Position numbers and translations under genes: made by a program
Part shown: piece after piece, positions 15,384 through 54,884 of the stretch
How positions within the stretch are numbered: position 1 is the stretch's first letter
How the letters are laid out: each line of letters starts with the position of its first letter
The notes under the pieces: model-generated
What the model was told of the DNA's origin: nothing
Seen by the model: only the letters and a program-made list of their open reading frames with translations
The model's database searches: none
Source of the DNA: Nitrospirales bacterium
GTDB lineage: Bacteria > Nitrospirota > Nitrospiria > Nitrospirales > UBA8639
Assembly: GCA_963555755.3 (NCBI GenBank)
Contig: OY820905.2
Coordinates: 3,328,001 to 3,392,000, forward strand
Length of the DNA stretch: 64,000 nucleotides
Reading direction: 5' to 3'

Positions 15384-15500
15384 TTGGATTTGTTGGAGGC
15401 CCGGTGCCACAACGAATCTCAATTTTCGTAGTTACATTTCGTATTGGCCCTTCTACCCGATTCATCTCTATCAAAAGGATTGCAGGTTTGGCAATGGTAA

Positions 15501-15590: not shown

Positions 15591-15593
15591 CCC

Positions 15594-36976: not shown

Positions 36977-37508
36977 CTTTCGATTGGGGAGGCAATGGGT
37001 CAACCTGTGCCTAAGGCGTGGCTTCGAATCCATTTGTTGCTTTCTCTGTTCAGACGCTACTACCATATAGTATGAGCACCCTTCCTCCAAAATCCAAACT
37101 GGAAAAGCCCTCTGACGGAGACCCGCCCCGCCGCATTCAAACACAGATCCATCGGCGGAATAAGGCGAAGGCGGTGTATCCTATGACCGATGAATGGGAA
37201 AATTCTCAAGATTCTCCTCCAAAGGGCTTAAAGCGGCCTCCCGAGGATATGCCCAAAAAAAAGTAGACTATCTCGTGCCTGTCTTTCTCTTCATTTTTTT
37301 TACGGCTTCCCGCAAGCATTTCCTTTTGGTGTAGAGTTCCCGATCTGAAAGGTAACGCGTCCATTCTTCCCTAAGTGTACTATGAAGTTGGGGCTTTTGA
37401 TGGCATTTTGGTAGGTCTTTTGTTCTCTTGATTCGTTAAAAAACGCGGTGTTACGATGGTAAATTCTGCAGAAAACTTGATGTTTTTTGCTTTTTGGGGG
37501 AGGTCAGT

Positions 37509-37892
37509 ATGAGTGGTTATGATATTCTACTTGCCTATTTGGATAATTATTCTCCCATCCTGATTTTTATCATCCTTGCCTTGGGCTTTGGGCTGGTGAC
37601 CTTGGGTCTCAGTTACTTAGTCCAACCGAAATATCCAGAAGATGAAAAATTGAGTGTATATGAATGTGGAAGCGAGCCGTTCTCGGACTCTCGTATACCC
37701 TTTCCCGTTCGCTATTACGTGATTGCCATGCTGTTTGTGATTTTCGATATTGAAGTAATTTTTCTCTATCCCTGGGCTATTACCTTCCATGAGTTGGGGG
37801 TGATAGGCCTGATTGAAATGATGATTTTCATTGGATTGTTTGTTGTTGCGTATGTCTATGCGTGGCGCAAGGGCGCTCTTGAGTGGGATTAA
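37509..37892 (+). CDS. nuoA: NADH-quinone oxidoreductase subunit A
   Basis: KLSVYECG, FVIFDIE, WRKGALEW; ATG after GGAGG. Confidence 0.96.
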   Translation: MSGYDILLAYLDNYSPILIFIILALGFGLVTLGLSYLVQPKYPEDEKLSVYECGSEPFSDSRIPFPVRYYVIAMLFVIFDIEVIFLYPWAITFHELGVIGLIEMMIFIGLFVVAYVYAWRKGALEWD

Positions 37893-37986
37893 TGAACGTG
37901 AAGCGTGATCCGTGAAGCGTAAGGCGTAAAGGAATGAAAGAAACGGCATTTTCCCACCCATCACGCATGACGCATCACGCATAACG
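37893..37986. repeat. Inverted heptamer cassette at nuoA-nuoB junction
   Basis: CGTGAAG CGTGATC CGTGAAG CGTAAGG ... TCACGCA TGACGCA TCACGCA TAACG. Confidence 0.85.
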
Positions 37987-37995
37987 AGGAAAAGA

Positions 37996-38535
37996 ATGGG
38001 TTTAATCCAAATAGGTAAGAAGCACGAGCGAGATGGCGATCTTGGCGTCATGACGCTTTCATTAGAGAAAGTCGTGAATTGGGCGCGGAAAGGGTCGCTG
38101 TGGCCGATGACATTTGGGTTGGCGTGTTGCGCGATTGAAATGATTGCAGCGGTGTCGTCTCGCTATGATATTGATCGGTATGGCGCCGGTGTGTTTCGCG
38201 GATCACCTCGGCAATCGGATGTCATGATTGTGGCGGGTACGGTGTGTCGCCGCATGGCGCCGGTTATTCGAAAAATTTATGATCAAATGCCGGAACCCAA
38301 ATACGTCATTTCCATGGGATCGTGCGCCACGTCTGGAAATATCTACGACAGTTATAGCGTGGTTCAGGGTGTTGATCGGTTTGTGCCCGTGGATATTTAT
38401 GTTCCGGGGTGCCCACCAACCCCCGAGGCATTGTTCGACGCCATTTTGAAACTTCAAGACCAAATCATGCAGAAGCGGGTGTTTACCAAGCAGCCTGATG
38501 AAGTGAAACCTGGTGCGAAAAGTAGAATGGTCTAA
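37996..38535 (+). CDS. nuoB: NADH-quinone oxidoreductase subunit B
   Basis: [22 protein letters not shown]. Confidence 0.97.
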
Positions 38536-39032
38536 TGCATCCATTAGCTGAATCCATTCAGACTCGATTCCCCCAGGGGGTGGTCTCTGTGTATGAATGG
38601 CGCGGGGATGTGGCGGTGACGGTCACGCGTGACCAGGTACACGATGTGTGTCGGTATTTGCGGGATGACCCGAGCATGGATTTCGATTACATGGTACATG
38701 TGAGTTCCGTGGATTGGCCTGATGAAGAGGAACGGTTTGAGGTAGTGTGGGAAGTGTACTCGATTCGAAACCGTCATCGAATTCGGATTAAAACGCGGGT
38801 GCCTGAACATGATTGTTTTGTGGATTCGATGACGGATATTTGGCATGGGGCGGATTTTATGGAGCGGGAAGTGTTTGACATGATGGGCATTCGCTTCAAC
38901 AACCATCCTGACCTCCGTCGGATCTTGATGCCCGATGAATATACTGAAGGCTGGCCGTTGCGGAAGGATTTTCCGCTGCAAGGCAAGGGCTGGCGAGATA
39001 CGTTTGAATTTTTAGATGAACCGACAGCCTGA
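38535..39032 (+). CDS. nuoC: NADH-quinone oxidoreductase subunit C
   Basis: EREVFDMMGIRF..HPDLRRIL, PLRKDFP. Confidence 0.96.
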   Translation: MHPLAESIQTRFPQGVVSVYEWRGDVAVTVTRDQVHDVCRYLRDDPSMDFDYMVHVSSVDWPDEEERFEVVWEVYSIRNRHRIRIKTRVPEHDCFVDSMTDIWHGADFMEREVFDMMGIRFNNHPDLRRILMPDEYTEGWPLRKDFPLQGKGWRDTFEFLDEPTA

Positions 39033-39150
39033 TTTTTTTGTGAATGGCAATATATCGTCAATCTTCAAAAGATAAATCCCCCTCTTTCCCCCTTTTTCAA
39101 AGAGGGAGGAATCCTGTGAAGAGGGGAACTAAGAGAGTAACGCGGCGAAT

Positions 39151-40401
39151 ATGGCGCATTTAGAAGATCAACGCGAGACGATTTATAAAGTCGATCCGGA
39201 GCATCCGGCGACCAAGGATCTTCCGGTTCTGCGGAGTGAAGAGCTGTTGCTTAACATGGGGCCGCAGCATCCGGCGACACATGGTGTGCTCAAGGTCATT
39301 CTCGCTCTCGAAGGTGAGCGCATTACCAAGTCTACGGTGGTCATGGGCTTTTTGCATCGCGGAGTCGAGAAACTTGCGGAGTATGGCACCTACCATCAGT
39401 TTATTCCCCATACCGATCGTCTTGATTACGTCTGCGCGATGTACAACAACTTTGCGTACTGCCGTGCTGTTGAAAAATTGATGAACATCACCCTGCCCGA
39501 AAAGGCAGAATATTTACGCACCATTGTCGCAGAAGTGCAGCGGATTATCGGCCATTTGTTTTGGCTTGGCACGCAGGCGTTGGATATCGGCGCGATGACC
39601 GTCTTTTTTTATACGTTCCGTGATCGCGAGATTCTCCTGGATTGGTTTGATGAATTATGCGGTGCACGTCTGACTACAAGCTGGTATCGCATTGGTGGCG
39701 TCGAGCGGGATTTCACGGATTCGTTAGAAGATAAAGTTCGACGGTTCTTGGATTATTTCCCTCCGAAGATCGAAGAATATGTGGTGTTCTTGGAGAAGAA
39801 TCGAATTTGGCTAGCTCGCACCGTGGGGGTCGCGGTCATCACTGCCGAAGATGCCTTAAGTTTTGGATTGAGTGGACCTACGTTGCGCGGGTCAGGTGTG
39901 GATTACGATTTGCGCAAATACGAATCATATGGGGCCTATCCCAAATGTGAGTTTAGCGTGCCAGTGGGGAAAAATGGTGATACTTATGACCGGTATTGGA
40001 TTCGCATAGAAGAAATGCGGGAAAGCATCAAAATCGTTCGGCAATGTATGGAGCAGATGCCGAAGGAAGGGGCGATCATGGCGGATGTGCCGAGTGTCAC
40101 CTTACCGCCGAAAGATCGTGTGTTTACCAATCTCGAATCCATGATTCAGCAGTTCAGGCTTTTTTCTCAAGGGTTCGATGCTCCGGCTGGAGAAATTTAT
40201 TGCGGAACGGAAGCGCACAAAGGTGAACTCGGCTTTTATATTGTGAGTACCGGTGGAGGAAATCCCTATCGGTTAAAAATTCGATCGCCTTCCTTTATTC
40301 ATATGGGTGCCTTCGATCATATGGCCAGAGGCTATATGATTGCCGATGCCGTCACGATCTTCGGATCCTACGATATTGTAATGGGGGAGTGCGACAGATG
40401 A
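39151..40401 (+). CDS. nuoD: NADH-quinone oxidoreductase subunit D
   Basis: NMGPQHPATHGVL, LHRGVEK, DRLDY, DIVMGECDR. Confidence 0.97.
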   Translation: MAHLEDQRETIYKVDPEHPATKDLPVLRSEELLLNMGPQHPATHGVLKVILALEGERITKSTVVMGFLHRGVEKLAEYGTYHQFIPHTDRLDYVCAMYNNFAYCRAVEKLMNITLPEKAEYLRTIVAEVQRIIGHLFWLGTQALDIGAMTVFFYTFRDREILLDWFDELCGARLTTSWYRIGGVERDFTDSLEDKVRRFLDYFPPKIEEYVVFLEKNRIWLARTVGVAVITAEDALSFGLSGPTLRGSGVDYDLRKYESYGAYPKCEFSVPVGKNGDTYDRYWIRIEEMRESIKIVRQCMEQMPKEGAIMADVPSVTLPPKDRVFTNLESMIQQFRLFSQGFDAPAGEIYCGTEAHKGELGFYIVSTGGGNPYRLKIRSPSFIHMGAFDHMARGYMIADAVTIFGSYDIVMGECDR

Positions 40402-40406
40402 AAAGA

Positions 40407-40493
40407 CGTGAAGCGTAACGCGTGATCCGTAATGCGTAAGGAACACGGCCATTCTTTATTTTACGCATCACGCATCACGGGTTACGCATTTCG
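40407..40493. repeat. Inverted heptamer cassette at nuoD-nuoG junction
   Basis: CGTGAAG CGTAACG CGTGATC CGTAATG CGTAA ... TTACGCA TCACGCA TCACGGG TTACGCA. Confidence 0.85.
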
Positions 40494-40519
40494 AAATTGA
40501 GAAGAGCGGGAGAGATAAT

Positions 40520-43213
40520 ATGGGACTAAAACTAGTCACAACACCAGATGTTGAAGCGGTGAAGATCGAGCTCAGCATTGATGGGGAAACAGTCACCGCG
40601 AACGAAGGTGTGTCGCTCTACGAGGTGATTTCGAGCACGGGCAAGATTATTCCGGCCATGTGCTATCACTATACCTTTGATCCCTTTGGTTCCTGCGGTA
40701 TGTGTTTAGTCCTGCAGGAAGGGAAAAAATCTCCGGTGCGGTCATGCACAGCCAAAGCAGCGGCTGGCATGGTTATTACCACGGAAGGGGATGACCTCTT
40801 TGCTGCCCGAAAGAAGGGCGTAGAAAAACACTTGTTGGTTCATCCATTGGATTGCCCTGTGTGTGATGCCGATGGGCATTGCGAATTACAAGACATGGCC
40901 TTCGAGCATCAGGTCACCGACCTGGCCAATGCCAAACAGAAAAATATCCCTGAAGACACAAGAAGCCTCGTTCTCGATTTCAATATGAATCGCTGCATCG
41001 TGTGTGGTGAGTGCATCAATATTTGCAAAGACGTTCAGCGCATTGATGCGCTGCAGTTTATAAAAAAGGATGGGTTTACCCAGGTCGTGGCCAAAGGGGA
41101 TCAAGCCCTCGATTGCGAATTTTGCGGGGATTGTTTAGCAGTCTGTCCTGTTGGCGCGATTACCAATAAATTTTCTAAATATGTGTACAAGCCATGGCAG
41201 CTCAGAAAGACGACGACGACCTGCAATTATTGTGGTGATGGTTGTCAGATGTATATCGAGACGAAAGATACGGAAGTCGTTCGTGTGACCTCGCCACTCT
41301 CATGGAAAAACAAATGGGGTGATCGGACCGATACGGACAATGGGCATGATGGGTTGTGTGTTCGTGGACGATTCGGGTTTCAATTCATCGATAGCAAAGA
41401 TCGGCTCAAGCAGCCGTTGATGCGCAAAGACAATGCCTTAGTTGATGCCCCATGGATCGAGGCATTGGATACGGCGGCTGAGCGATTGAAGGAGATTAAA
41501 GAAAAATATGCCCCTGATGCTATTGCCGGATTGATTACCGCGCGTTGTACGAATGAAGAACTCTATGTCTTTCAAAAATTCATGCGAACGGTGATCGGGA
41601 CGAATAACGTTGATAGCAGCGCTCGGTACGGACACGTGAATTTCGTACGAGCCGTTCATCATGCCTTAGGCATTCATCGGACGATGAACACGTCGGCGGA
41701 TATCACGAAAGCCACGGCCATTTTGGTGGTGGGATCCAACATCACGGAAACCAATCCTGTGGCCAGCCTGCGAATCAAAGCTGCGCTGGGGACCTATAAA
41801 GCCTCGGTGATTGTGGTGGATTCGATGCAGACGAATCTAGCCAAACTCGCATCCCACCCCATTATGGTCAGACCGGGGACAGAAGGCCTCTTGGTCAAAG
41901 GGTTAGTCAAGTCAGTCTTGGATCAAGACCTTGTGGATTCGGATGTGACCGCGCAGGCGCCTCCAGCGTTCGATGCGCTCAAACAGGCGGCGAATGCTAT
42001 CTCCCTCGAGGCCGTCGCCCAGCAGACGGGCATTGCGGTGGAGCAGATCAATGAAATTGCCAAGATTTTTGCCGAAGCGTCTCGCTCTATCATTCTGTGC
42101 GGCGAAGGAATCGTTCGACAGCATGATGGCTACAATAATGTGTTGAATCTAGTGGACTTGGCTTGGATCACCGGAAAATTAAATGCTGAGGGATCGGGCA
42201 TCAATACGGTTGTGGAAGAAGGCAATGAGCAGGGAGCCTTAGATATGGGGGTGGCCCCGGAATTCCTTCCTGGTCCCATGGCTTTTGATGATACAACGGC
42301 CCAGGAAAAATTCTCTCAAGCTTGGGGTGGGGCATTGCCAGCGTCTCACCATGGCTCGACCCTCATGGATATTTTGCAGGGTTGCCGTGATGGAAAAATT
42401 AAGGCCTTGTATGTCGTTGGAGAAAATCCGTTGGCCACGCTTCCGAAGTCTTATGGTGTTGACGAAGCCTTAGGACAGTTAGAATTGTTGATCTGCCAAG
42501 ATCCGTTCCTCACCGAAACCGCGCAACAGGCGCATATCGTGTTCCCGGCCTGCACCTTTGCGGAAAAGGACGGCACCGTGACCAATCAAGAAGGGAAGGT
42601 GCAGTTTGTCAGGCCGGCGCTCGATCCTCTGGGTGAGAGTGCTTTGGACTGGCATATCATCGTCGGCATCGCCGATAGCATGGGGCATATGATGCCGTAT
42701 GAAAATACGCAGGATATTCAGGATGAAATTCGCAAGCTTCTTCCCGGGTATTACAATCTTGGCCAACCCAAGAAAGTTGAGGCCAATCCAACTGCGTATT
42801 TGAATAATGGATTCGCGAATGAGGCGACTGGCCGCTATGCAAGTTCGGGAAATGCCCTAAACCAGGCCCGGCCGGTTGGCTTAAAACTCATTCAGCTACT
42901 TTACCATTCCGGAAAACTCTCCACGAAAGCATCGGGCCTAATGGATATCTCTCCAAACACCAAATGTTTGCGCATGGCGCCTGAGGAACTTGAACGGTTG
43001 GGGTTAACAGAGGGAGGGCGTGTTCGAGTCACGTCTGACCACGGCCAAGTGGAATTGGGTGTTGAAGCTGATCTTGCGGTGTTGCCGGGTACCTGTGTGT
43101 TCCCGGAGCATTTCACCGATCCTCCGGTCAAAGATTTGATGTTGGTTGAACTCGATCAAGTGACCCGGGTGCCCTATTTTAAATTGGCTCAGGTTTCCAT
43201 CGATAAAGTTTAA
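40520..43213 (+). CDS. nuoG: NuoG-like Fe-S subunit (FdhF-like fold, no Mo ligand)
   Basis: 2Fe-2S motif, HPLDCPVC, two CxxCxxCxxxC, CNYCGDGC; NNVDSSARYGH lacks the Cys/Sec. Confidence 0.8.
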   Translation: MGLKLVTTPDVEAVKIELSIDGETVTANEGVSLYEVISSTGKIIPAMCYHYTFDPFGSCGMCLVLQEGKKSPVRSCTAKAAAGMVITTEGDDLFAARKKGVEKHLLVHPLDCPVCDADGHCELQDMAFEHQVTDLANAKQKNIPEDTRSLVLDFNMNRCIVCGECINICKDVQRIDALQFIKKDGFTQVVAKGDQALDCEFCGDCLAVCPVGAITNKFSKYVYKPWQLRKTTTTCNYCGDGCQMYIETKDTEVVRVTSPLSWKNKWGDRTDTDNGHDGLCVRGRFGFQFIDSKDRLKQPLMRKDNALVDAPWIEALDTAAERLKEIKEKYAPDAIAGLITARCTNEELYVFQKFMRTVIGTNNVDSSARYGHVNFVRAVHHALGIHRTMNTSADITKATAILVVGSNITETNPVASLRIKAALGTYKASVIVVDSMQTNLAKLASHPIMVRPGTEGLLVKGLVKSVLDQDLVDSDVTAQAPPAFDALKQAANAISLEAVAQQTGIAVEQINEIAKIFAEASRSIILCGEGIVRQHDGYNNVLNLVDLAWITGKLNAEGSGINTVVEEGNEQGALDMGVAPEFLPGPMAFDDTTAQEKFSQAWGGALPASHHGSTLMDILQGCRDGKIKALYVVGENPLATLPKSYGVDEALGQLELLICQDPFLTETAQQAHIVFPACTFAEKDGTVTNQEGKVQFVRPALDPLGESALDWHIIVGIADSMGHMMPYENTQDIQDEIRKLLPGYYNLGQPKKVEANPTAYLNNGFANEATGRYASSGNALNQARPVGLKLIQLLYHSGKLSTKASGLMDISPNTKCLRMAPEELERLGLTEGGRVRVTSDHGQVELGVEADLAVLPGTCVFPEHFTDPPVKDLMLVELDQVTRVPYFKLAQVSIDKV

Positions 43214-43229
43214 GGAGCAGGTTCTTTCT

Positions 43230-43805
43230 ATGGATTCAGGCAACACGACCAAAAAAATCTTTGACGCGGTCTTATTCCGGGAAATCTGGACGGCCATGAA
43301 GGTGACGTTTAAGCATATGTTTCATCGTCCCATCACGTTTGAATACCCTCGTGAAAAGCGAATAATTCCCGATGCCCACCGAGGAGCGCTGGGGCTCTTA
43401 CGATACGATAATGGGGTGGAGCGGTGTGTCGGCTGCGATTTATGTGAGGTGGCTTGCCCTTCTCACTGCATCAAGGTGATTAGTGAGGAAGATAAGTCCA
43501 TGCCGCTCCAAAGAATTGCGACGGAGTTTTATATTGACATCACCAAATGCGTGTTTTGTGGATATTGTGTGGAAGCCTGCCCGGTCAATGCACTCGCCAT
43601 GACCAAAATGTATGAGTATTCAACCCATGACAAGCGAACGCTCATGTTCGACAAAAAGCGGCTCTATGAAATTGGCGACATCCATATAGAAGATGCCAAA
43701 AAATATTTATATGCCCATAACCAAGAAAAGGACGATCAGGAGAGCCGCGCCTACCGCTATCAATTCCCGCAACCTGTAGGAAAAGCTGAAGCTTCTGACT
43801 CTTAA
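43230..43805 (+). CDS. nuoI: NADH-quinone oxidoreductase subunit I
   Basis: CVGCDLCEVACP and CVFCGYCVEACP. Confidence 0.96.
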   Translation: MDSGNTTKKIFDAVLFREIWTAMKVTFKHMFHRPITFEYPREKRIIPDAHRGALGLLRYDNGVERCVGCDLCEVACPSHCIKVISEEDKSMPLQRIATEFYIDITKCVFCGYCVEACPVNALAMTKMYEYSTHDKRTLMFDKKRLYEIGDIHIEDAKKYLYAHNQEKDDQESRAYRYQFPQPVGKAEASDS

Positions 43806-43814
43806 CACTTCACG

Positions 43815-44345
43815 ATGATCTATTTATTGTTCGGGTACTTCGCGACGGTGAGCATCGTGGCCGGTGTCTTCACGATCGCGTTGAAAAATCCTGTTCATTG
43901 CGGCATGAGTCTGTTGACGTTGCTTCTGCACGTCGCGGGGTTGTTCGTCCTGCTCAATGCGGAATTCTTGTTTGCCGTACAGATCATTGTCTATGCGGGA
44001 GCCATTTTGATTCTGTATTTGTTTGTCTTGATGCTATTGAACCTCAAAACTGAAGAGCAATTTCTTCATAAAAAATATCCATTCGCCCTGTTTGCCGGGA
44101 TCGCCATTCTTGGGGAACTTCTTATTCTGATTTTCCAAACGCCCTATAGTGGAGTGAAGGGGAAGGCCACGACGGAGGTCATTTTAACCACCGGACCGAG
44201 TCATGCGATTGGCCTGGTCATGTTTAGCGATTATTTGCTGTTGTTCGAGATTGTCGGAGTGTTTCTCTTGGGAGCCGTGATTGGTGCGATCGTGTTAGCC
44301 AAGACACCATCGTCGCCGGTGCCGAAGGCGGATGGATCTAATTAA
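43815..44345 (+). CDS. nuoJ: NADH-quinone oxidoreductase subunit J
   Basis: NPVH, QIIVYAGAI..LYLFVLM, FEIVG. Confidence 0.95.
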   Translation: MIYLLFGYFATVSIVAGVFTIALKNPVHCGMSLLTLLLHVAGLFVLLNAEFLFAVQIIVYAGAILILYLFVLMLLNLKTEEQFLHKKYPFALFAGIAILGELLILIFQTPYSGVKGKATTEVILTTGPSHAIGLVMFSDYLLLFEIVGVFLLGAVIGAIVLAKTPSSPVPKADGSN

Positions 44346-44369
44346 CGTCGCGGGGTTTACCATTACACC

Positions 44370-44672
44370 ATGATTCCTCTTTCTGCATATGTGGGGTTGA
44401 GTGCAATTCTGTTTATGACAGGACTCATTGGAGTGCTGATTCGTCGGAACTTCATCATTATCTTGATGTCCGTGGAGATTATGCTCAATGCCGCCAATAT
44501 CAATCTCGTGGCGTTTTCCCATTACTTGGATTCGATGGCTGGGCAAGTAGCAGCCCTATTTGTCATTGCCATTGCCGCCGGAGAAGCGGCCATAGGCTTG
44601 GCCATCATCATCGTGGTGTTCCGTGGAAAAATTGCGACCAATGTGGATCAGATCAATTTGTTGAAATGGTAA
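44370..44672 (+). CDS. nuoK: NADH-quinone oxidoreductase subunit K
   Basis: RRN..LMSVEIMLNA, AAGEAAIGLA. Confidence 0.96.
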   Translation: MIPLSAYVGLSAILFMTGLIGVLIRRNFIIILMSVEIMLNAANINLVAFSHYLDSMAGQVAALFVIAIAAGEAAIGLAIIIVVFRGKIATNVDQINLLKW

Positions 44673-44673
44673 C

Positions 44674-46665
44674 GTGTCAGATCTTCTCGTAATTCTTATC
44701 CCAGTCTTTCCGCTCATTGCCGTCCTGGTGAATGGGCTCGTCGGTCATCGATATTCTCATGACCTAGCTGGCCGTATTGCCTTAGGATCTGTGGGTTTAT
44801 CCTTCCTCTGTTCACTCAATGTTCTCGTGGGTGTCATGTCCGATCCGACCCCTCGCGAAGTCATTGCCTACTCTTGGATCTTTGGGGGTGACCTCAACAT
44901 CAATCTCGGATTCCTGATCGATCCGTTAACCGCTATCATGTTGATGGTAGTGACAGGAGTTGGATTTCTGATTCATGTGTACTCGGTTGGGTATATGCAT
45001 GGCGAAGAAGGGTTTACCCGTTTCTTCGTGTATATGAATTTGTTCATGGTCTCGATGCTCCTGCTGGTGATGGGCAACAACTATTTGGTGCTCTTCATCG
45101 GGTGGGAGGGTGTCGGACTGTGCTCCTATCTGTTGATCGGGTACTACTTCACCAAAGTGTCGGCGTCGAAAGCGGCCACCAAGGCCTTTGTGGTCAATCG
45201 CATTGGTGATGCCGGGTTCCTTCTGGCTATCTTCTTAATCTTCGTGAATTTTAAGACATTGGATTACACCAAAGTATTTGCCAATGCGGACCAACTCTCT
45301 ACAGAAATGGCCACGGCGATCGCCCTGTGCTTGTTAGTCGGAGCCATAGGAAAGTCGGCGCAACTGCCTCTGTTCACGTGGTTGCCTGATGCCATGGAAG
45401 GTCCCACGCCGGTGAGTGCCCTGATTCATGCGGCCACTATGGTAACGGCTGGTGTCTACATGGTGGTTCGAAACCACGTGTTATTCGATATGGCGCCGGT
45501 GGCTATGGCCACGGTGGGCCTCGTTGGAGGCATCACCGCGTTATTTGCCGCCACGATTGGACTAGTTCAGAACGACATCAAGCGTGTGTTGGCCTACTCA
45601 ACCGTCAGTCAGTTGGGCTACATGTTTTTGGCCTGTGGGGTAGGTGCGTATACTGCCGCCATCTTTCATCTGGTCACCCATGCGTTTTTCAAGGCGCTCC
45701 TCTTCCTGACTGCCGGGGCGGTGATTCATTCGCTGAATGGCGAGCAAGACATTCGGAAGATGGGCGGGCTCTCTAAAAGGATTCCGATTACGCATACGGT
45801 GTTTCTCATCGGCACCCTGGCCATTGCGGGGATTCCGCCGTTGGCCGGATTCTGGAGTAAAGATGAGATCATGGCGCATGCGTTTCTTCAGGGAGATTTT
45901 TTGGGATACGTGTTGTACGCTTTTGCGGCCATTGGCGCATTTTTGACGTCTTTTTACATGTTCCGTCTCATGTATCTTACGTTTTACGGGCAGTCGCGAG
46001 TTGATCCTGAAGTCGATCATCATATCCATGAATCGCCGCCGGTGATGACGGTGCCGCTTATGGTGTTGGCTGGCCTCGCGATTGTTGGTGGTTTTTTAGG
46101 TGTTCCGCCCGAGCATGGATGGTTCCATGGATTTTTATCGACTGTGGCAACACCGCTTGGCGCAGTGCCTCATGAAGTGAGTACGGGGACGTTGATCGGT
46201 TTAATGGCTGTGGCCATTAGTATTGCGCTGGGTGGTTGGGGATTGGCGCACTATATGTATTCCGTGAACACGACGTTGGCAGAAGAGTGGTCGGAACGAT
46301 TCGCTGGGGCCTATCGCACCGTGTTGAATAAATACTATGTGGATGAAATTTACGATGCGATCATTGTTGAACCGTGTAAACGTCTTGGCCAAATATGGGA
46401 TTGGGTCGATCAGAATATTATCGATCGCTTCATTCGCGGGATAGGTCACGGAGCCGATGTCAGTGGGGCCGGGGTCACGTGGACGGAGAAACACGTGATT
46501 TATGCGGGTCTCAATGTGATTGGGTTCGCCAATCATTTTGCGGCCCGGTCGTGGCGGAAAATGCAAACGGGTCTGGTGAATCATTACGCTGCGGTGTTTG
46601 TGATTGGACTGTTTATTCTTGTGCATTTAATTATTGTGTGGCTGACCGGAACATCGTTCTTATAA
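44674..46665 (+). CDS. nuoL: NADH-quinone oxidoreductase subunit L (extended lateral helix)
   Basis: GKSAQLPL..WLPDAMEGPTPVSALIHAATMV, HAFFKALLF; 663 aa. Confidence 0.96.
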   Translation: MSDLLVILIPVFPLIAVLVNGLVGHRYSHDLAGRIALGSVGLSFLCSLNVLVGVMSDPTPREVIAYSWIFGGDLNINLGFLIDPLTAIMLMVVTGVGFLIHVYSVGYMHGEEGFTRFFVYMNLFMVSMLLLVMGNNYLVLFIGWEGVGLCSYLLIGYYFTKVSASKAATKAFVVNRIGDAGFLLAIFLIFVNFKTLDYTKVFANADQLSTEMATAIALCLLVGAIGKSAQLPLFTWLPDAMEGPTPVSALIHAATMVTAGVYMVVRNHVLFDMAPVAMATVGLVGGITALFAATIGLVQNDIKRVLAYSTVSQLGYMFLACGVGAYTAAIFHLVTHAFFKALLFLTAGAVIHSLNGEQDIRKMGGLSKRIPITHTVFLIGTLAIAGIPPLAGFWSKDEIMAHAFLQGDFLGYVLYAFAAIGAFLTSFYMFRLMYLTFYGQSRVDPEVDHHIHESPPVMTVPLMVLAGLAIVGGFLGVPPEHGWFHGFLSTVATPLGAVPHEVSTGTLIGLMAVAISIALGGWGLAHYMYSVNTTLAEEWSERFAGAYRTVLNKYYVDEIYDAIIVEPCKRLGQIWDWVDQNIIDRFIRGIGHGADVSGAGVTWTEKHVIYAGLNVIGFANHFAARSWRKMQTGLVNHYAAVFVIGLFILVHLIIVWLTGTSFL

Positions 46666-46671
46666 GGGGAA

Positions 46672-46767
46672 GTGAAGCGTGATCCGTAAAGCGTTATGCG
46701 GGAGTAAAGATTGCGGCGAATTTTAAACGTGACCCCATTCTTTTCATATCACGCATTACTCATTACG
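46672..46767. repeat. Inverted heptamer cassette at nuoL-nuoM junction
   Basis: GTGAAG CGTGATC CGTAAAG CGTTATG CG ... ATCACGC ATTACTC ATTACG. Confidence 0.75.
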
Positions 46768-46848
46768 ATCTTTTAAGCCAATGGCAAATAGAGCAATACT
46801 GAATAAATCAAATGGACGTTTTAAATAGAAATACAGCAGGCAGCATTC

Positions 46849-48420
46849 ATGCTTGAAGAACTGCAATTTGGATTTCCCCTACTATCGGTCCTGATTTTCT
46901 TGCCGTTCGTCGGAGCGCTCTTGCTGTGGACGCAGAAGGATCCGGATCTTCTCAAGAAGTCGGCCCTCGGGATCGCCGTACTTGAGCTCATCCTAGCTGC
47001 GTTGCTTTTATGGCGATTCATTCCCGATTCTGCCGCCATGCAATTCAGTGAACGGCATGAATGGATTCCTCCACTGGGAATTTCCTATCACCTCGCCGTC
47101 GATGGCATTAGTATTTTGTTCGTCGGTCTGACGGCCTTTCTCACCGTTCTGATTGTGCTCTATTCCTGGGATGCGGTGTCCCAGAATCTCAAAACCTATT
47201 TCATGAGCATCCTGGTCTTGGAAACGATGATCATGGGCATTTTCGTGTCCATCGATTTAATCCTGTTCTTCGTCTTCTGGGAACTGATGCTGATTCCCAG
47301 CTACTTCCTCATCAAAATGTGGGGGGTGGGAGAAGAGAGGGAGTATGCCGCGTTAAAGTATGTCCTCTACACGTTGTTGGGCAGCGTCTTTATGTTGGTG
47401 GGGTTCGCGCTGCTGAGCTTGAATTATCATGATATCACGAATACGTATAGTTTCGACTTCCTCGAATTGCTGACGGTTCCCGTGCCGGTCGGACAACAGT
47501 TTCTAATTTTTTGGTTCATCTTCATGGGGCTGGCCTTTAAGGCTCCGATATTTCCTTTTCACACCTGGTTGCCGGATGCACTTGTTCAAGGGCCCATCGG
47601 CATGTCGGTAGTATTGGCGGGCGTCAAACTGGGAACGTATGGATTCCTACGCTTCAGTTTTCCGTTGCTCCCTGAAGCCTCCACGAATGAAACAGTGGTT
47701 GTGATACTCATGGTCCTCGGCCTTTCTGCAATTGTGTATGGCGCGATCATTGCGATTGTGCAGGCCGACTTTCGCCGTCTCTTGGTCTATAGCAGCATTA
47801 GCCATTTAGGCTTCATCGTGATCGGTCTGTTTGCGCTGAACTTTCAAGGCATTCAAGGCAGCTTGTTGCAGATGATCAACTTGGGCTTTACGACCGCTGG
47901 CCTCTTTTTCATAGCAGGCTTTCTGTATGACCGAACGGGAAATACCCTTGTGGATCAAGCCGGAGGCATTGCGGCCAAGATGCCCTTGTTCGCGACGTTC
48001 TTTCTCATCATTGGCATGGCGTCAATTGGGTTGCCCGGAACGAATGGGTTTATTGGAGAGTTTCTAATTCTGCTTGGCGCCTTTCAAGCGCATTGGGTCT
48101 ATGGGACTGTGGCGGTATCCGGTGTGATTTTCGCGGCAGCGTATTTCCTGTGGTATTACGAACGAGCGATCTTTGGTCCGTTGGGAGAAAAAGTGCCGCA
48201 AGTGCTACAAGATTTAACTCAACGCGAGACCATTATTGCGGTGTCGCTGTGCGTCATGATTTTTTGGATCGGCTTGTATCCGTCACCATTTTTGCGAATG
48301 ATCAATGGCTCGGTGCAAGCGGTCGTCGATAGATTAGAGCGAGGTTCCGTGGCAAGTATTGAGTTCGACAAACGATTCGCGATGGATTCTCCGAATACAC
48401 GCCTTCTGGTGAAAGAATAG
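46849..48420 (+). CDS. nuoM: NADH-quinone oxidoreductase subunit M (copy 1)
   Basis: FWELMLIP, KAPIFPFHTWLPDA, KLGTYG, YSSISH, GLPGTNGFIGE. Confidence 0.95.
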   Translation: MLEELQFGFPLLSVLIFLPFVGALLLWTQKDPDLLKKSALGIAVLELILAALLLWRFIPDSAAMQFSERHEWIPPLGISYHLAVDGISILFVGLTAFLTVLIVLYSWDAVSQNLKTYFMSILVLETMIMGIFVSIDLILFFVFWELMLIPSYFLIKMWGVGEEREYAALKYVLYTLLGSVFMLVGFALLSLNYHDITNTYSFDFLELLTVPVPVGQQFLIFWFIFMGLAFKAPIFPFHTWLPDALVQGPIGMSVVLAGVKLGTYGFLRFSFPLLPEASTNETVVVILMVLGLSAIVYGAIIAIVQADFRRLLVYSSISHLGFIVIGLFALNFQGIQGSLLQMINLGFTTAGLFFIAGFLYDRTGNTLVDQAGGIAAKMPLFATFFLIIGMASIGLPGTNGFIGEFLILLGAFQAHWVYGTVAVSGVIFAAAYFLWYYERAIFGPLGEKVPQVLQDLTQRETIIAVSLCVMIFWIGLYPSPFLRMINGSVQAVVDRLERGSVASIEFDKRFAMDSPNTRLLVKE

Positions 48421-48425
48421 TTTTC

Positions 48426-50021
48426 ATGGGTTCTTTAGCCTTACTCACAGTATTGTTTTCGCCATTTTTTGGCGCCATTGCGTTGATCTTTGTCCCGAAT
48501 CGGGAAGCCCTCATGGTGCGCATGGTGGCTGCGGCGTCTGCTGGCCTTTCCCTCTTGGCCTCGTTGTATGTGTTTATGGCCTACGACCCGAATGTCGGCG
48601 GGTTTCAGTTTAAGACCCATTGGCCGTGGTCTGAGGAACTAGGCATTGCCTTTTATATTGGCGTGGATGGCATTGGGGCGCCCTTGGTTTTTGCCTCGGC
48701 GCTCTTACTCTTCGCGGGTATTTTTGTTTCGTGGCATATCAAAGATCGAACCAAAGAATTTTATATCTTTTTGTTGATCCTCGCAGCGGCGACCATTGGG
48801 GTCTTCATGTCGCTGGACCTGTTCTTCCTCTACTTCTTCTATGAAATGTCCGTGCTGCCTATGTACTTGCTGTTGGGGGTGTGGGGCAGTCACACCAAGG
48901 GCTACTTGGGCATGACGGATGCAGAAGGCTTGAAGCTGAGGGATTCCACCAAATTCTTTTTAAACTTTGGGTCGAACAGCAAAGAATACGCGGCCATGAA
49001 GCTGACGCTGTTCTTGTCGGCAGGTGCCGTGTTCGCACTCATGGGCATCCTCTTGATTTACCATTTCTCGCCCGTGCATACGTTCAACATTTTGGTGCTG
49101 CGAGAGCAGGCAAAATTTGATGGCCTGTTGGGCAACATTATTTGGCTACTCATCTTTTTTGGATTTGCCTCGATCGCGCCGATTTGGCCGTTGCATTCCT
49201 GGTCGCCCGTCGGCCATGCCGCGGCGCCTGCTGCGACAAGCATGTTGCATGCCGGCGTGCTGATGAAGCTGGGCCACTTCTCCATTATCCGTGTAGCCTT
49301 TGAAATAATGCCGGAGATCACACGCGAACTCATGCCCATTGCGGCGGTCCTGTGTGTCTTCAGTATTCTCTATGGCGGTTTTGTGTCCTATTATGCCAAG
49401 GACACCAAATACGTCATTGGGTATTCCAGTTCGAGCCACATGGGCTACATTTTTTTAGGCATGGCAGCGTTGGACTACATCAGTTTGACCGGGGCGGTCA
49501 TTTATATGTTTGCCCATGCCCTGGCCACGGGAATGCTCTTCGCCATGGCGGGATGGATCTATGACCAAACGCACTCGCGTGACATCCCGTCATTAGGAGG
49601 GTTGGCACAGAAGATGCCCTTCCTTGCCGGTGCGTTTCTTGTGGCCTGTATGGCCTCAGTCGGCATGCCCGGCACCATAAATTTTATCGCCGAAGTGATG
49701 ATTATCGTGGGCAGTTGGGAGAAATATCCCTTCCAAGTCATCGTCGCGGTGTTGGGAATTGTGCTGACCCTCGCCTATTTGTTCAAAATGATGCGGGGCC
49801 TCTTCTACGGAAAGCTGTCACCGGAATTTGAGCATGTGAGTGATACCTCGCAATGGGTGGATCGAATGCCACTGCTGCTGATGATCACCGCCAGTATTTT
49901 CTTTGGCATTTTCCCGATGCACTTTTATCACGTGGTCCGGTCAACGGTAGAACCCATGCTAGATCGAATCAACCAAGTGGCGCCGGCGATTGCGCAGAAT
50001 ACAGCGGGGATTTTTCCGTAA
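48426..50021 (+). CDS. nuoM: NADH-quinone oxidoreductase subunit M (copy 2, divergent)
   Basis: FFYEMSVLP, WPLHSWSP, MKLG, YSSSSHMG, GMPGTINFIAE. Confidence 0.9.
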   Translation: MGSLALLTVLFSPFFGAIALIFVPNREALMVRMVAAASAGLSLLASLYVFMAYDPNVGGFQFKTHWPWSEELGIAFYIGVDGIGAPLVFASALLLFAGIFVSWHIKDRTKEFYIFLLILAAATIGVFMSLDLFFLYFFYEMSVLPMYLLLGVWGSHTKGYLGMTDAEGLKLRDSTKFFLNFGSNSKEYAAMKLTLFLSAGAVFALMGILLIYHFSPVHTFNILVLREQAKFDGLLGNIIWLLIFFGFASIAPIWPLHSWSPVGHAAAPAATSMLHAGVLMKLGHFSIIRVAFEIMPEITRELMPIAAVLCVFSILYGGFVSYYAKDTKYVIGYSSSSHMGYIFLGMAALDYISLTGAVIYMFAHALATGMLFAMAGWIYDQTHSRDIPSLGGLAQKMPFLAGAFLVACMASVGMPGTINFIAEVMIIVGSWEKYPFQVIVAVLGIVLTLAYLFKMMRGLFYGKLSPEFEHVSDTSQWVDRMPLLLMITASIFFGIFPMHFYHVVRSTVEPMLDRINQVAPAIAQNTAGIFP

Positions 50022-50099
50022 ACCAAAAACGCAACGGGAGAAAAATGATAGACCTTTTAGCTTGTATTTCCTGCACCTTGCGACGTGGTGACCATTCAG

Positions 50100-50205
50100 T
50101 CCCCCCTTTGGAAAAGGGGGTTAGGGGGATTTATAGTTTTTTAACTTTCAACTAGTACATCCCAAACCTCCCTCGCCCCTGAGGGGAGAGGGTTGGGGTG
50201 AGGGG
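50100..50205. repeat. Two short REP-like hairpins (CCCCCCTTT-N-AAAGGGGG and CCCTCGCCC-N-GGGAGAGGG types)
   Basis: Related copies at 39075-39110 and, inverted, at 52253-52288. Confidence 0.7.
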
Positions 50206-50265
50206 TTAGCCCATGAGGAAGTTAAAATACCCTACTCACAAAAACTACGATTAACTGAATTTCTT

Positions 50266-51762
50266 ATGACCTTTGATCTCACACTATCCGTCTCCGACCT
50301 CCTCCTTCTCGCACCAGAGATTTTTCTCACACTCTGGCTGTGTGTGGTGTTGGCCGTCGATTTTTCAATCAAAAATATAGATCACGAAAATCTCGCGTAC
50401 CTTTCGGTTGGCGGAATTATTGCCACGCTCATCAATCTGATTTGGTTCGATTATATCGGGGTCCACGGTGCATTGTTTAAGGACACGTTTGTCCTGGACG
50501 GCATGGCGATCTTCTTTAAAATCCTCATTCTGCTGTCCACCGCGCTCGTCTTGTTGATGTCTATCGATTACGTCAAGAATTTCCGCTTCTTTCGTGGCGA
50601 ATATTATTTCCTCGTCATGATGTCGGCCCTGGGCATGATGTTTATGGCATCAGCCCAGGATCTGTTGTCGGTGTTCGTGACGTTAGAGTTTTCCACATTC
50701 GGGTTTTATGTGTTGGTCGCGTACCTCAGAGAAGATGAACGGTCCAGCGAAGCGGGGCTGAAATTTTTTATTCTGGGAGTGTTTGCCGCGGGCCTATTGG
50801 CATACGGGATCAGTCTGGTCTACGGAGAAACCGGAACCTTTACATTCTCTGAAATGACATCGTCACCTGGAAGCTACGGTTTGGCAATTGGCTTTATCAT
50901 GATCTTTGCCGCCCTCGGTTTCAAAATCGGTGCGGTGCCATTTCACTCTTGGATTCCTGATACGTACCAAGGCGCTCCGACACCCGTTACCGCGTTTCTC
51001 TCCATCGCTCCGAAGGCAGCGGCATTAGCTATTCTCATTCGCATGTTCTATGTCGCGCTCATCACGTTTAAGCCGATGTGGGTGTTGCTGTTTGTCGTTG
51101 CCTCGATTGTCTCGATGACCTATGGCAACATTGTGGCCATAGCGCAGAAAAATATTAAACGGCTGCTGGCGTATTCCGGCATCGCCCAAATTGGCACTGT
51201 GATGATTGGGTTGGCCGCGGGAACCAAGCGCGGAAGTGATGCGATTCTGTTCTTTCTGTTAACCTACCTGTTCGCCAATCTCGGCGCGTTTGCTGTGGTT
51301 GTCGGCGTAAGTAACCTAATCAAGAGTGATGAAATCGAGGACTACAATGGCTTGAATCGCCGATCACCCTTCCTCGCAGCGGCCATGCTGCTCTTTCTTC
51401 TGTCGTTGGCAGGCGTGCCACCACTCGCTGGATTTATCGGGAAACTCTACATCTTTCTCGCCGCCATTGAACAAGAACTCTATACGCTGTTGATTGTCGG
51501 TCTGATCAACATCGTGATCTCACTGTATTACTACCTTATTGTGGTCAAAAAGATGTACATCAACGAACCCACCGATCCCACCCCTCTCACCGTCTCAGCC
51601 CCCCTCAAAACCGTCATCTTCGTCAGCATCGCTGGTACGCTGATCCTCGGCATCTACCCCAAACCCTTCATCGACTGGGCCGTCTCAGCCACCCTCATGT
51701 TTTCCAATCTTGTAGCTCCAACAGCAGCAGTGCCTGCCGTGAGTCATTTGGTGGGCGGCTGA
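50266..51762 (+). CDS. nuoN: NADH-quinone oxidoreductase subunit N
   Basis: SEAGLKFFILG, FKIGAVPFHSWIPDTYQGAPTP, KRLLAYSGI, SLAGVPP. Confidence 0.96.
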   Translation: MTFDLTLSVSDLLLLAPEIFLTLWLCVVLAVDFSIKNIDHENLAYLSVGGIIATLINLIWFDYIGVHGALFKDTFVLDGMAIFFKILILLSTALVLLMSIDYVKNFRFFRGEYYFLVMMSALGMMFMASAQDLLSVFVTLEFSTFGFYVLVAYLREDERSSEAGLKFFILGVFAAGLLAYGISLVYGETGTFTFSEMTSSPGSYGLAIGFIMIFAALGFKIGAVPFHSWIPDTYQGAPTPVTAFLSIAPKAAALAILIRMFYVALITFKPMWVLLFVVASIVSMTYGNIVAIAQKNIKRLLAYSGIAQIGTVMIGLAAGTKRGSDAILFFLLTYLFANLGAFAVVVGVSNLIKSDEIEDYNGLNRRSPFLAAAMLLFLLSLAGVPPLAGFIGKLYIFLAAIEQELYTLLIVGLINIVISLYYYLIVVKKMYINEPTDPTPLTVSAPLKTVIFVSIAGTLILGIYPKPFIDWAVSATLMFSNLVAPTAAVPAVSHLVGG

Positions 51763-51970
51763 TATCCCTTCCTTCCTAAGTATATTCTCACTTATGAAAA
51801 ACTCATTGTAGTTGTAAAAGAAGCTTCAAGGAAAAATATTTCTCAAGCAGAGCTTGGACAACGAATCAAACAGCTTGGAGAAGTGGCGATTACCATTGCC
51901 AAAAAGGTAGGTGTCTTGGCTGCGACCATAGCCCTATAATGAGCTGAAGGGAGAGTTGCGTAGGGGAGGG

Positions 51971-52216
51971 TTACTTCGATTTCCTTACATAAGCCTTATA
52001 GACCATTTTAGGATCGGCTTCTTCTTCTTCAAGTCCTACCATTTCATGGCCGGTGGTTTGGCACCAGGCGGGCATGTCTTTTTTGATGCCTTCGTCGTCG
52101 GATAGTACTTCGAGGACTTGGCCCATGGTGAGTTGTTTGATTTTCTTTGAAGTCATTATTATGGGCATGGGGCAGAAATAACCTAGGGTATCAAGTGTGG
52201 TGTCGGATTCGATCAT
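51971..52216 (-). CDS. tusA: TusA family sulfur carrier
   Basis: LDTLGYFCPMP, LEVLSDD, DMPAWC. Confidence 0.9.
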   Translation of the reverse strand: MIESDTTLDTLGYFCPMPIIMTSKKIKQLTMGQVLEVLSDDEGIKKDMPAWCQTTGHEMVGLEEEEADPKMVYKAYVRKSK

Positions 52217-52307
52217 TTAATTAGCTCCAATTTAATCATGAAAAAAGATTAACCCCTCACCCTTCCCTCTCCCCTCAGTGGCGAGGGTAGTTCTCTATAC
52301 TTATTTC

Positions 52308-52838
52308 TCAAATAAACAAATTCACAGCGCCGTCTTTGGCTTCCGCAAGATAGGTGGAGACGCCGGCAAGTTGGTCAATGCCATCAATCAGCGTATCTTT
52401 TGAAATCCCGAGTAAGCCAAGGGTCGTTGTGCACGCGATCATGTTCACGCCAAGATCTTGAGCAGTTTCCAGCAGCTCAGGAACAGAGGGCATCCGGTTG
52501 TCTTTCATGACCTTCTTCATCATGATGGAGCCCAAGCCGCCAAAGTGAAATCTTGACAGTGGAAGGTTCTTCGCGCCTCCTTTGTTCAGCCAACCAAAGG
52601 CCTTGCGGAGAAAGTCTTTGGCAGAACTTGTGGCGCCTTCCTTTCGAATGACATTCAATCCCCAGAAGGTAAAAAACATGGTGACTTGCATGCCCATGGC
52701 CGCGGCGCCGGTGGCGATGATAAAGGCGGCCATGGCTTTATCCATATCTCCACTCAGAAGCACGATCGTTACCTTATCAGGTTTGGTTTCTTGAAGTTGA
52801 GCGAGAGTTGTAGCGGGTTCAACTTGTGTCATACTCAT
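52308..52838 (-). CDS. DsrE/DsrF/DrsH-like (DsrE2) sulfurtransferase
   Basis: SGDMDKAMAAFIIATGAAAMG, FFTFWGL, IACTTT, NLFI. Confidence 0.9.
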   Translation of the reverse strand: MSMTQVEPATTLAQLQETKPDKVTIVLLSGDMDKAMAAFIIATGAAAMGMQVTMFFTFWGLNVIRKEGATSSAKDFLRKAFGWLNKGGAKNLPLSRFHFGGLGSIMMKKVMKDNRMPSVPELLETAQDLGVNMIACTTTLGLLGISKDTLIDGIDQLAGVSTYLAEAKDGAVNLFI

Positions 52839-54111: not shown

Positions 54112-54152
54112 TTCTGAGGTTCTGAGTTCATGGGGTTCAAGGTTCAGGGTTT
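54112..54152. repeat. Left arm of heptamer cassette (GGTTCAG-type) upstream of four-helix-bundle gene
   Basis: GGTTCTG AGTTCAT GG GGTTCAA GGTTCAG GGTT; reverse complement of downstream array units. Confidence 0.75.
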
Positions 54153-54159
54153 ATGAAAG

Positions 54160-54552
54160 ATGAAAATTGAACGATTTGAAGATATTGAAGCATGGCAACT
54201 GGCGCGTGAGTTGACCCGAAAAGTGTATGGACTGGCGAAGAAGCCAGTATTTGCCAAAGATTATGGGTTAAAGAAACAGATACAAAATGCTGCTGGATCG
54301 TCGATGCATAATATCGCTGAAGGGTTCGATTCAGAGACGAATCCTGAATTTATCCGGTTCTTACGGTACGCCAAGCGGTCTTGCACGGAAGTTCAGAGTG
54401 AGTTGTATTTAGCTTTGGACGAAGAGTACATCTCGTCCGATGAATTCAAAGAAACCTTCGAGCTTGCTGGACGAACCCGTGCTGCTGTTAGGGGATTCAT
54501 TAACTATCTCAAGAAATTTGAGGAACACAACAAGGCGATCCATGAACGGTGA
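54160..54552 (+). CDS. Four helix bundle protein (23S rRNA IVP / S23-like, Avd-like fold)
   Basis: FEDIEAWQLAREL, YGLKKQIQNAAGSSMHNIAEGF, FIRFLRYAKRSCTEVQSEL. Confidence 0.93.
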   Translation: MKIERFEDIEAWQLARELTRKVYGLAKKPVFAKDYGLKKQIQNAAGSSMHNIAEGFDSETNPEFIRFLRYAKRSCTEVQSELYLALDEEYISSDEFKETFELAGRTRAAVRGFINYLKKFEEHNKAIHER

Positions 54553-54827
54553 CCCCTGAACCATGAACGGTGACCCCTGAACCATGAACGGTGACCCCTG
54601 AACCATGAACGGTGAACCCTGAACCCTGAACCTTGAACCCTGAACCTTGAACCCTGAACCTTGAACGGTGACCCCTGAACCTTGAACGGTGACCCCTGAA
54701 CCTTGAACGGTGACCCCTGAACCTTGAACGGTGACCCCTGAACCTTGAACGGTGACCCCTGAACCATGAACGGTGACCCCTGAACCTTGAACGGTGAACC
54801 CTGAACCTTGAACGGTGAACCCTGAAC
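54541..54827 (+). repeat. Tandem array of 41 heptamers (NNTGAMC) with 21-bp higher-order period
   Basis: Units CATGAAC/CTTGAAC, GGTGACC/GGTGAAC, CCTGAAC; array begins in the last codons of the gene. Confidence 0.95.
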
Positions 54828-54884
54828 CTGACAGCCTGAGTCGTTAACAATCATCCAACCCTTGTTTCCCTAAAGGAGAGTCGT

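Follow-up and report, generated by a model that had tools for sequence, protein, structure and literature searches.

The complex I (nuo) operon of a Nitrospirales bacterium (GenBank assembly GCA_963555755.3) carries short inverted pairs of tandem heptamers at three of its gene junctions, and we analyzed these elements within a 64,000-nucleotide (nt) stretch of contig OY820905.2 (positions 3,328,001 to 3,392,000 of the forward strand), hereafter the window. Coordinates are those of the window unless they carry the prefix C1; the genome under study (4.6 Mb) is denoted G000, the other G numbers denote relatives, and L numbers denote loci. According to the Pfam gene identities, the operon (operon 1, 37494-51762) contained nuoA, B, C, and D, a nuoG-like gene, I, J, K, L, and M, an M-like gene, and N, in this order, with neither nuoE, nuoF, nor nuoH, and the NuoG-like protein scored under the NCBIfam NuoG cut-off. 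A second complex I operon, at C1:1206000-1218500, had a fused nuoCD followed by nuoE and nuoF. The nuoA/B, nuoD/G, and nuoL/M junctions of operon 1 each held a left arm of four to five tandem CGTRAnn heptamers whose first unit began 4-5 nt past the stop codon, a spacer, and a right arm of three to four complementary units; over the three copies the spacers ranged from 18 to 49 nt, with 3-5 units per arm. A preliminary description of this DNA had noted this arrangement, and direct reading of the sequence confirmed it, as follows.

nuoA/B left arm, 37897-37931: five heptamers, CGTGAAG CGTGATC CGTGAAG CGTAAGG CGTAAAG, 4 nt past the nuoA stop (TAA, 37890-37892)
nuoA/B spacer (loop), 37932-37959: 28 nt, diverged from the orthologous copy in G002
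nuoA/B right arm, 37960-37986: ATCACGC ATGACGC ATCACGC ATAACG, abutting the GAGGA ribosome-binding site of nuoB (ATG at 37996)
nuoD/G left arm, 40407-40441: five heptamers, 5 nt past the nuoD stop (TGA, 40399-40401)
nuoD/G right arm, 40460-40487, with a degenerate fifth unit to 40494: TTTACGC ATCACGC ATCACGG GTTACGC, separated from the left arm by an 18-nt spacer (nuoG ATG at 40520)
nuoL/M left arm, 46671-46698, with a degenerate fifth unit CGGGAGT to 46705: AGTGAAG CGTGATC CGTAAAG CGTTATG, 5 nt past the nuoL stop (TAA, 46663-46665)
nuoL/M right arm, 46748-46768: three units, ATCACGC ATTACTC ATTACGA, a decayed copy (nuoM ATG at 46849)

When no more than one mismatch was allowed, three CGTRA cores in phase occurred 16 times in the window, against an expectation of 0.03, and 16 or more matches were reached in none of 100 dinucleotide shuffles. 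All 16 matches fell at the three nuo junctions and at a fourth, decayed copy at 15557-15591. The preliminary description had also suspected a trace of a right arm in front of nuoJ, which turned out to be a single CTTCACG (43806-43812) within a 9-nt spacer. This heptamer occurs 473 times in the genome. Because nearly the same 9-nt nuoJ spacer was present in relatives of other genera (L018, TACTTCACG; L006, TCTCTCACG), the CTTCACG is part of an ancestral spacer and not an arm.

An element was called when each of its arms had three phased units that matched the core at 14 or more of 15 positions and a gap of no more than 120 nt separated the arms; by this definition the genome contained 85 copies in the order CGTRA arm then TYACG arm, none in the reverse order, and none after shuffling. 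Whole-genome self-similarity at period 7 gave 199 segments, versus 1 in a shuffle, and lags of 8-11 yielded 1 to 9. The nuo hairpins are ordinary members of this genome-wide family and are not specific to nuo. The unit consensus was CGT[GA]A[TA]G, with CGTGATG, CGTGAAG, CGTAATG, CGTGATC, and CGTAAAG as the commonest variants; left arms and complemented right arms contained these at equal frequencies. Arms of five units were the most frequent, seen on the left in 42 and on the right in 39 of the 85 elements, with extremes of 3 and 10 units. The innermost unit of the arms was A-rich, AAA[GA][AT] stood beside the outermost unit on both flanks, and the spacers, mostly 7-60 nt long, were partly palindromic, A-rich and then T-rich. 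Since every unit carries TGA or TAA and 7 = 1 mod 3, a reading frame entering the element from either side meets stops in all three frames; of the 85 elements, 69 had such inbound stops in the left arm, 65 had them in the right arm, and 0 showed them in the outbound direction. With gene contexts taken from our own codon-usage gene caller, 84 of the 85 elements lay outside called genes, 83 could be assigned to junctions (57 of 2807 co-directional, 22 of 621 convergent, and 4 of 620 divergent), and 64 of 102 stop-side element ends were within 15 nt of the stop codon.

Arms of the same design enclose genes for a small four-helix-bundle protein (PF05635 / TIGR02436), a very large family for which we know of no established function outside diversity-generating retroelements. 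One such filled cassette was present in the window, as follows.

Upstream arm, 54112-54152, + strand: about five GGTTCAG-type heptamers
Cargo gene, PF05635 / TIGR02436, 54160-54552, + strand: four-helix bundle of 130 amino acids (aa)
Downstream arm, 54543-54829, + strand: about 41 heptamers of the TGAACCN type, in which a 21-nt triple unit recurs 14 times; they complement those of the upstream arm

The genome contained four PF05635 genes, and all four had 2-9 period-7 segments within 400 nt. Two of the four sat among GAAAAAT/ATTTTTC hairpins, and the one at C1:3789354-3790011 was bracketed by CGTGAWG arms, the word of the nuo hairpins. Its homologue in G002 (L045) encoded a protein of 74% identity and had the same CGTGAWG arms. 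In G000 this word was represented by 85 empty copies and one filled copy.

The association of gene and arms extended well beyond this genome. The PF05635 family was found in 28 of 61 sampled genomes of the order, and among the in-order loci with an open reading frame (ORF), 28 of 35 showed period-7 arrays next to the gene, and in 15 of these 28 the arrays flanked it. Among 80 cross-phylum loci, which were found with an alignment of five proteins, 51 had lag-7 arrays, 31 on both sides, while lags of 5, 6, 8, and 9 gave arrays at 1, 4, 17, and 0 of the 80, respectively. The upstream arm was the complement of the downstream arm (consensus distance of at most 2) in 33 of 42 loci, versus about 10 of 42 after permutation. 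The similarity of the words tracked protein identity (r = -0.365; none of 500 permutations reached this value), and a word was shared by 44% of pairs at 75% or higher protein identity versus 1-2% of pairs under 45%. As the loci are kin, this correlation shows that gene and arms were inherited together, and not that the protein recognizes the arms. In stretches of 400 kb, genomes without PF05635 had 0 and 3 period-7 segments, genomes with 5 and 8 PF05635 genes had 17 and 16, and G000 had 6-35. The word of the nuo hairpins was the word of a resident cassette in four genomes, namely G000, G002, G003, and G031.

A four-helix-bundle ORF between arms at a nuo junction, which the preliminary description had proposed to look for, was found in the second complex I operon of G031, where a frameshifted PF05635 gene lies between heptamer arms at nuoE/F. 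The nuoA/B and nuoCD/E junctions of the same operon carried gene-less CGTTAAn hairpins, and the arms of the filled nuoE/F cassette were the same. The closest relatives of this PF05635 gene (59-60% identity) likewise had CGTTAAn arms.

We conclude that the nuo elements are copies of an 85-member family of palindromes of about 90 nt, with arms of about five CGTRAWG heptamers, and that these are most likely gene-less members of the heptamer-armed PF05635 cassette family, which shares its design with ORF-bearing intervening sequences of 23S rRNA. The preliminary description had seen in them the layout of the four-helix-bundle cassette with no gene, and this part of it held, inasmuch as CGTGAWG arms bracket a PF05635 gene in G000 and G002 and a nuo junction of G031 holds a filled cassette. 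The gene-less hairpins occupy the few bases that separate a stop codon from the following ribosome-binding site, or lie where two convergent stops face each other, and they would descend from, or be maintained alongside, a cassette with the same word. In the polycistronic nuo RNA they would form stems of 25-35 bp with a mismatch about every seventh base. Such stems would probably be cut by RNase III, as is the stem of the Coxiella intervening sequence (IVS), or stall 3' exonucleases, and the resulting segmentation of the transcript would be a side effect and not a conserved regulator of complex I. An RNase III gene was present in the genome. The predicted folding energies were -28.0 kcal/mol for nuoA/B (z -1.9), -37.6 kcal/mol for nuoD/G (z -4.4, the best of the three), and -23.8 kcal/mol for nuoL/M (z -0.25); in these folds roughly one position in seven was unpaired. 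A terminator scan of 37000-52500 gave 16 candidate sites, no more than the 18.5 of shuffles, and none coincided with the three elements. At gathering thresholds Rfam detected no family and no rRNA in the window, and at E <=0.01 it found only tRNA in three stretches of G000. One assembled RNA contig (40383-41013) spanned the whole nuoD/G hairpin joined to nuoG; as an assembled contig it is silent on processing. The transcripts are thus predicted to carry long stems at three junctions of operon 1 and three of operon 2, which is relevant when transcript or subunit levels of these operons are read.

Several observations weigh against the interpretation of the elements as gene-less cassettes. The only CGTGAWG-word PF05635 gene of G000 is split by an insertion of about 190 nt. 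There is no sign of current mobility: no target-site duplication was detected, the lengths of direct repeats in the flanks followed the permuted distribution (42 of 85 elements had none, and the longest, 5 nt, occurred once), and most copies are shared between G000 and G002, whose flanks are about 80-81% identical. Among the spacers, 38 of at least 30 nt gave only matches of up to 16 residues to 119 PF05635 proteins, and the cassette interior yielded one 10-nt match; since the spacers hold no gene remnant, the derivation from the cassette is based on shared words and layout and not on intermediate forms in G000. At the array threshold used, no array accompanied 7 of 35 in-order and 29 of 80 cross-phylum cassette loci. 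The contrast between genomes with and without PF05635 came from four sampled relatives that are themselves kin, and the gene calls behind the placement counts came from our own caller. For the predicted stems, 69 of 200 shuffles folded as well as nuoL/M, and nuoA/B was only marginally better than shuffles (4 of 200). The RNA data were assembled Logan contigs from three runs, two of them metatranscriptomes, and such contigs show neither ends, strand, nor level and possibly include DNA.

The elements might instead be regulatory hairpins selected by the host, with stems fixed for the mRNA stability or translation ratios of complex I subunits and with a secondary likeness to cassette arms, although we consider this unlikely. 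Both complex I operons are indeed rich in elements, which occupied 3 of 11 junctions in operon 1 and nuoA/B, nuoB/CD, and nuoCD/E in operon 2, compared with about 2% of co-directional junctions genome-wide. The elements also cluster, with 16 neighbouring pairs (within five junctions) versus 8.0 +/- 2.6 expected, and at old orthologous sites the loops drift but the word persists. In E. coli, translation and mRNA decay are influenced by repetitive extragenic palindromic (REP) elements whose hairpins stand no more than about 15 nt from a stop codon. The folding results pointed the other way. Among the 54 co-directional copies the sense strand folded better in 20 and the antisense strand in 34 (p = 0.45), with 116 versus 135 G-U pairs, so there was no sense-strand advantage. 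Identity at variable positions between the two arms was 0.571 within elements, versus 0.599 +/- 0.012 for permuted pairs, and 993 of 1000 permutations were at least as high; the covariation between arms that the preliminary description had proposed to test was thus not found, and complementarity lay, if anything, slightly under the chance level. Native elements were on average 0.77 kcal/mol less stable than chimeras with a foreign right arm (31 more stable and 50 less stable; 81 of 85 tested, p = 0.046), and the nuoL/M fold was no better than those of shuffles. The arms are independent mosaics of unit variants, and compensatory evolution of stems is not the pattern seen.

The orthologous junctions of relatives likewise spoke against a regulatory role. 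In 32 orthologous operon-1 loci, the junctions ranged in length from -10 to 170 nt at nuoA/B, from -1 to 275 nt at nuoD/G, and from 5 to 229 nt at nuoL/M. The congener G002 had orthologous CGTGAWG elements at nuoA/B and nuoL/M, in which the outer units were kept and the inner units, loops, and unit numbers differed (for example, 4 versus 8 right-arm units at nuoA/B). The congeners G003 and G004, whose NuoD proteins were 96-97% identical, had no nuoA/B element, and G003 had no nuoL/M element either (gaps of 46, 31, and 20 nt); the G004 contig stops before the nuoL/M junction. At nuoA/B, G003 and G004 may keep remnants of a single unit. In other lineages the nuo junctions were filled by other words, by nothing, or by an unrelated GTTGAAAAA...TTTTTCAACA repeat of about 120-170 nt, a miniature inverted-repeat transposable element (MITE). 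With no covariation, no sense-strand bias, the nuoA/B copy absent from G003 and G004, and the nuoL/M copy absent from G003, the earlier suggestion that the hairpins were co-opted to tune subunit stoichiometry is not supported. The stems are no conserved part of nuo regulation.

Deletion scars, another origin suggested in the preliminary description, would mean that a full cassette formerly stood at each of the three junctions and at most of the 85 sites, and that deletion of the interval between its arms removed the gene. In-place decay of cassettes is indeed seen in the frameshifted nuoE/F gene of G031 and the split gene at C1:3789k of G000, and filled and gene-less forms agree in their words and in lying between a stop and a start. 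This explanation is nevertheless quite unlikely. None of the 32 orthologous operon-1 loci had a PF05635 gene at any nuo junction, 85 empty copies stand against one filled copy of the word in G000, and the short, partly palindromic spacers (mostly 7-60 nt) are unlike the products of random internal deletion. Because none of the 38 spacers of at least 30 nt contained a credible gene remnant, a scar at every site is not to be expected, and the claim that each site formerly held a gene was not borne out.

We considered it very unlikely that the heptamer arrays arose independently at each site by replication slippage, as local microsatellites whose inverted pairs survive as harmless. The variation of unit number between orthologous copies would fit such growth, as would the report, cited in PMC4679880, that heptanucleotide repeats are the top class of long repeats in most genomes. 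Slippage leaves unexplained, however, the single word in a forward-then-reverse arrangement at 85 sites with 0 reversed, the modal five units per arm, the A-rich AAA[GA][AT] flank on both sides, and the match of the word to the resident PF05635 cassette in four genomes.

It is extremely improbable that the elements are repeats of the type moved by REP-associated tyrosine transposases (RAYT), or classical MITEs, mobilized by a transposase unrelated to the four-helix-bundle gene. Their high copy number and extragenic position are REP-like, as is their tendency to lie at gene 3' ends and to be scarce in divergent (promoter) spacers; the missing target-site duplication fits Y1/HUH elements, and the genome has 17 Y1_Tnp matches. 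However, 0 of these 17 had a CGTRA array within 1.5 kb and only 1 any period-7 segment, versus 4 of 4 PF05635 genes with 2-9 segments, which speaks against a REP/RAYT system. The tandem-heptamer arms are unlike the REP design, and a DDE-type MITE is disfavoured by the lack of target-site duplications.

The distribution of the family in relatives bears on its age. Four phased CGTRA units occurred 109 times in G000, 80 in G002, 38 in G005, 26 in G006, 13 in G031, and 5 in G025, with 0 in both G003 and G004; G005 and G006 are incomplete genomes. A further 33 genomes had 0-1, as did the reversed control. Of 14 G002 elements with mapped flanks, 10 had both arms at the orthologous G000 site, 1 more did so at another threshold, 1 had a single arm, and 2 had none. 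Most copies are therefore common to G000 and G002 and predate the split of the two species. Orthologous loops were 60% identical versus 43% for unrelated loops, and orthologous arms were 66% identical versus 65% for unrelated arms. The loops thus drifted and the order of the units was lost while the word CGT-A was kept, which indicates either a constraint on the word or continuing homogenization.

A possible agent of such maintenance is the four-helix-bundle protein, which forms a five-subunit ring in relatives and might read the arms of about five units in its own cassette and in the gene-less hairpins, keeping or rewriting the word. We put this forward tentatively and regard it as doubtful. 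The word at nuoD/G is CGTGAWG in G000, and a CGTATCT-type hairpin stands there in G003, where the only PF05635 gene is flanked by CGTATYT arrays; in G002, CGTATCT and CGTGAAG units were mixed within one arm. If the protein does read the arms, the hairpins would be cis sites of a protein-guided selfish system that uses no transposase, and at the mRNA level they would amount to operon 'intervening sequences' cut by RNase III; the surplus of heptanucleotide repeats in bacteria, which has long lacked an explanation, would also gain a protein partner. If hairpins and cassettes form one system, the function of PF05635 and the excess of heptamer repeats become testable together.

Among the closest known systems is the IVS in helix 45 of the 23S rRNA of Coxiella burnetii (Warrier et al. 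2016, PMC4990558). This IVS has an S23p (PF05635) ORF in a state of decay and, at its 5' end, a tandem array of GACAGAT heptamers whose number depends on the strain; the first of these repeats is the site of RNase III cutting. ORF-less IVS forms exist, and the same paper cites a pentameric ring of the Xanthomonas homologue. The Coxiella IVS resembles the family described here in that a PF05635 ORF lies between ends whose complementarity lets them form a stem, and in that filled and ORF-less forms occur. Unlike it, the nuo copies lie between protein-coding genes and not in rRNA, and have no ORF; in addition, each arm here is a full array of some five units, the genome has 85 copies, and cutting by RNase III is predicted. 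The GGGAATC arrays of Xanthomonas campestris and X. axonopodis (Rehm et al. 2015, PMC4692102) form 70-75 convergent pairs per genome that are capable of stem-loops, mostly conserved between the two species with changing repeat number, and are similar in being intergenic tandem heptamers in inverted pairs. Their word is G-rich and was studied as a G-quadruplex former, unlike that of the present family, and PMC4692102 draws no connection to a four-helix-bundle gene, with 0 occurrences each of 'S23' and 'four-helix' in its text.

REP elements and bacterial interspersed mosaic elements (BIME; PMC2817692) share with the present family the properties of short, abundant, imperfect extragenic palindromes in 3' untranslated regions and intercistronic gaps, rare in divergent promoter regions, without target-site duplication, and expected to form stem-loops in mRNA. 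Unlike in REP/RAYT systems, the arms here are tandem 7-nt words and the associated gene encodes a four-helix bundle of about 120-130 aa and not a Y1 transposase. Direct heptamer repeats of TAACTGA in Beggiatoaceae, cyanobacteria, and Bacteroidetes (PMC4679880) and the heptanucleotide elements of Geobacter metallireducens (PMC2700814) are likewise arrays of 2-6 units, intergenic near gene ends, with stop-codon words and a patchy occurrence across lineages. They are mostly single direct arrays upstream of start codons, in contrast to the inverted pairs behind stops found here, and PMC4679880 gives only one inverted case in the Beggiatoa genome. In a search that mostly left out subscription journals, no paper was found that linked four-helix-bundle genes to heptamer repeats beyond the Coxiella IVS, or that joined the latter to the Xanthomonas repeats.

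Other features of the window and of related loci were as follows.

15500-15591: fourth copy of the same family, with a clear arm at 15557-15591 and a decayed partner at about 15503-15530, directly behind the stop of the minus-strand gene 15594-16967
13495-13595: gene-less hairpin of another word family (AAATCCG / CGGATTT), near-perfect, -45.5 kcal/mol, z -4.8

The AAATCCG/CGGATTT hairpin lies between the minus-strand genes 11726-13441 and 13679-15286. The AAATCCG word flanks PF05635 gene fragments in the congeners G005 and G006 (L241 and L242), and no cognate gene was found in G000. At C1:3933694-3934740 (L233), a CGTGA-type left arm stands behind an integrase/XerD-like gene with a matching right arm 977 nt away, and the interval between them contained no called gene and no Rfam match at E <=0.01.

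Some nuo junctions of relatives held other insertions. Inserts of about 570-620 nt at nuoB/C in L012, L014, L017, and L018 (G017, G022, G016, and G020, respectively) were suspected of being cassettes and were rejected, as they encode a protein of 172-189 aa that is not PF05635. This protein is conserved and has a signal-like N-terminus, and in L012 it is followed by four AAACCTG heptamers. In L030-L032 (relatives of family f4), about 1.9 kb at nuoC/D contained an ORF of 527-546 aa on the opposite strand, and the complex I operon is therefore interrupted there. The GTTGAAAAA...TTTTTCAACA repeat was located at nuo junctions of L001, L004, L005, L006, and L010, at nuoI/J of L003, and at nuoK/L of L022-L025. 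It resembles the repeat of about 190 nt with inverted ends (GGGAATGTTGAAAAAAG ... CTTTTTTCAACATTCCC) that splits the CGTGAWG-word gene of G000 at C1:3789460-3789650 (L234, about 260-450). The latter repeat has a second site at C1:3835712-3836019 (L236), inside the loop of a heptamer hairpin beside a tRNA gene.

The downstream arm of the filled cassette in the window is unusually long, with about 41 units versus about five upstream. The protein of this cassette was 74-82% identical to proteins of metagenome-assembled genomes labelled Desulfobacterota, Verrucomicrobiota, Cytophagia, Cloacimonadota, and Acidobacteriota (among L073-L152), which had the same GGTTCA-type arms. This points to a transfer of the whole GGTTCA-armed cassette between phyla.

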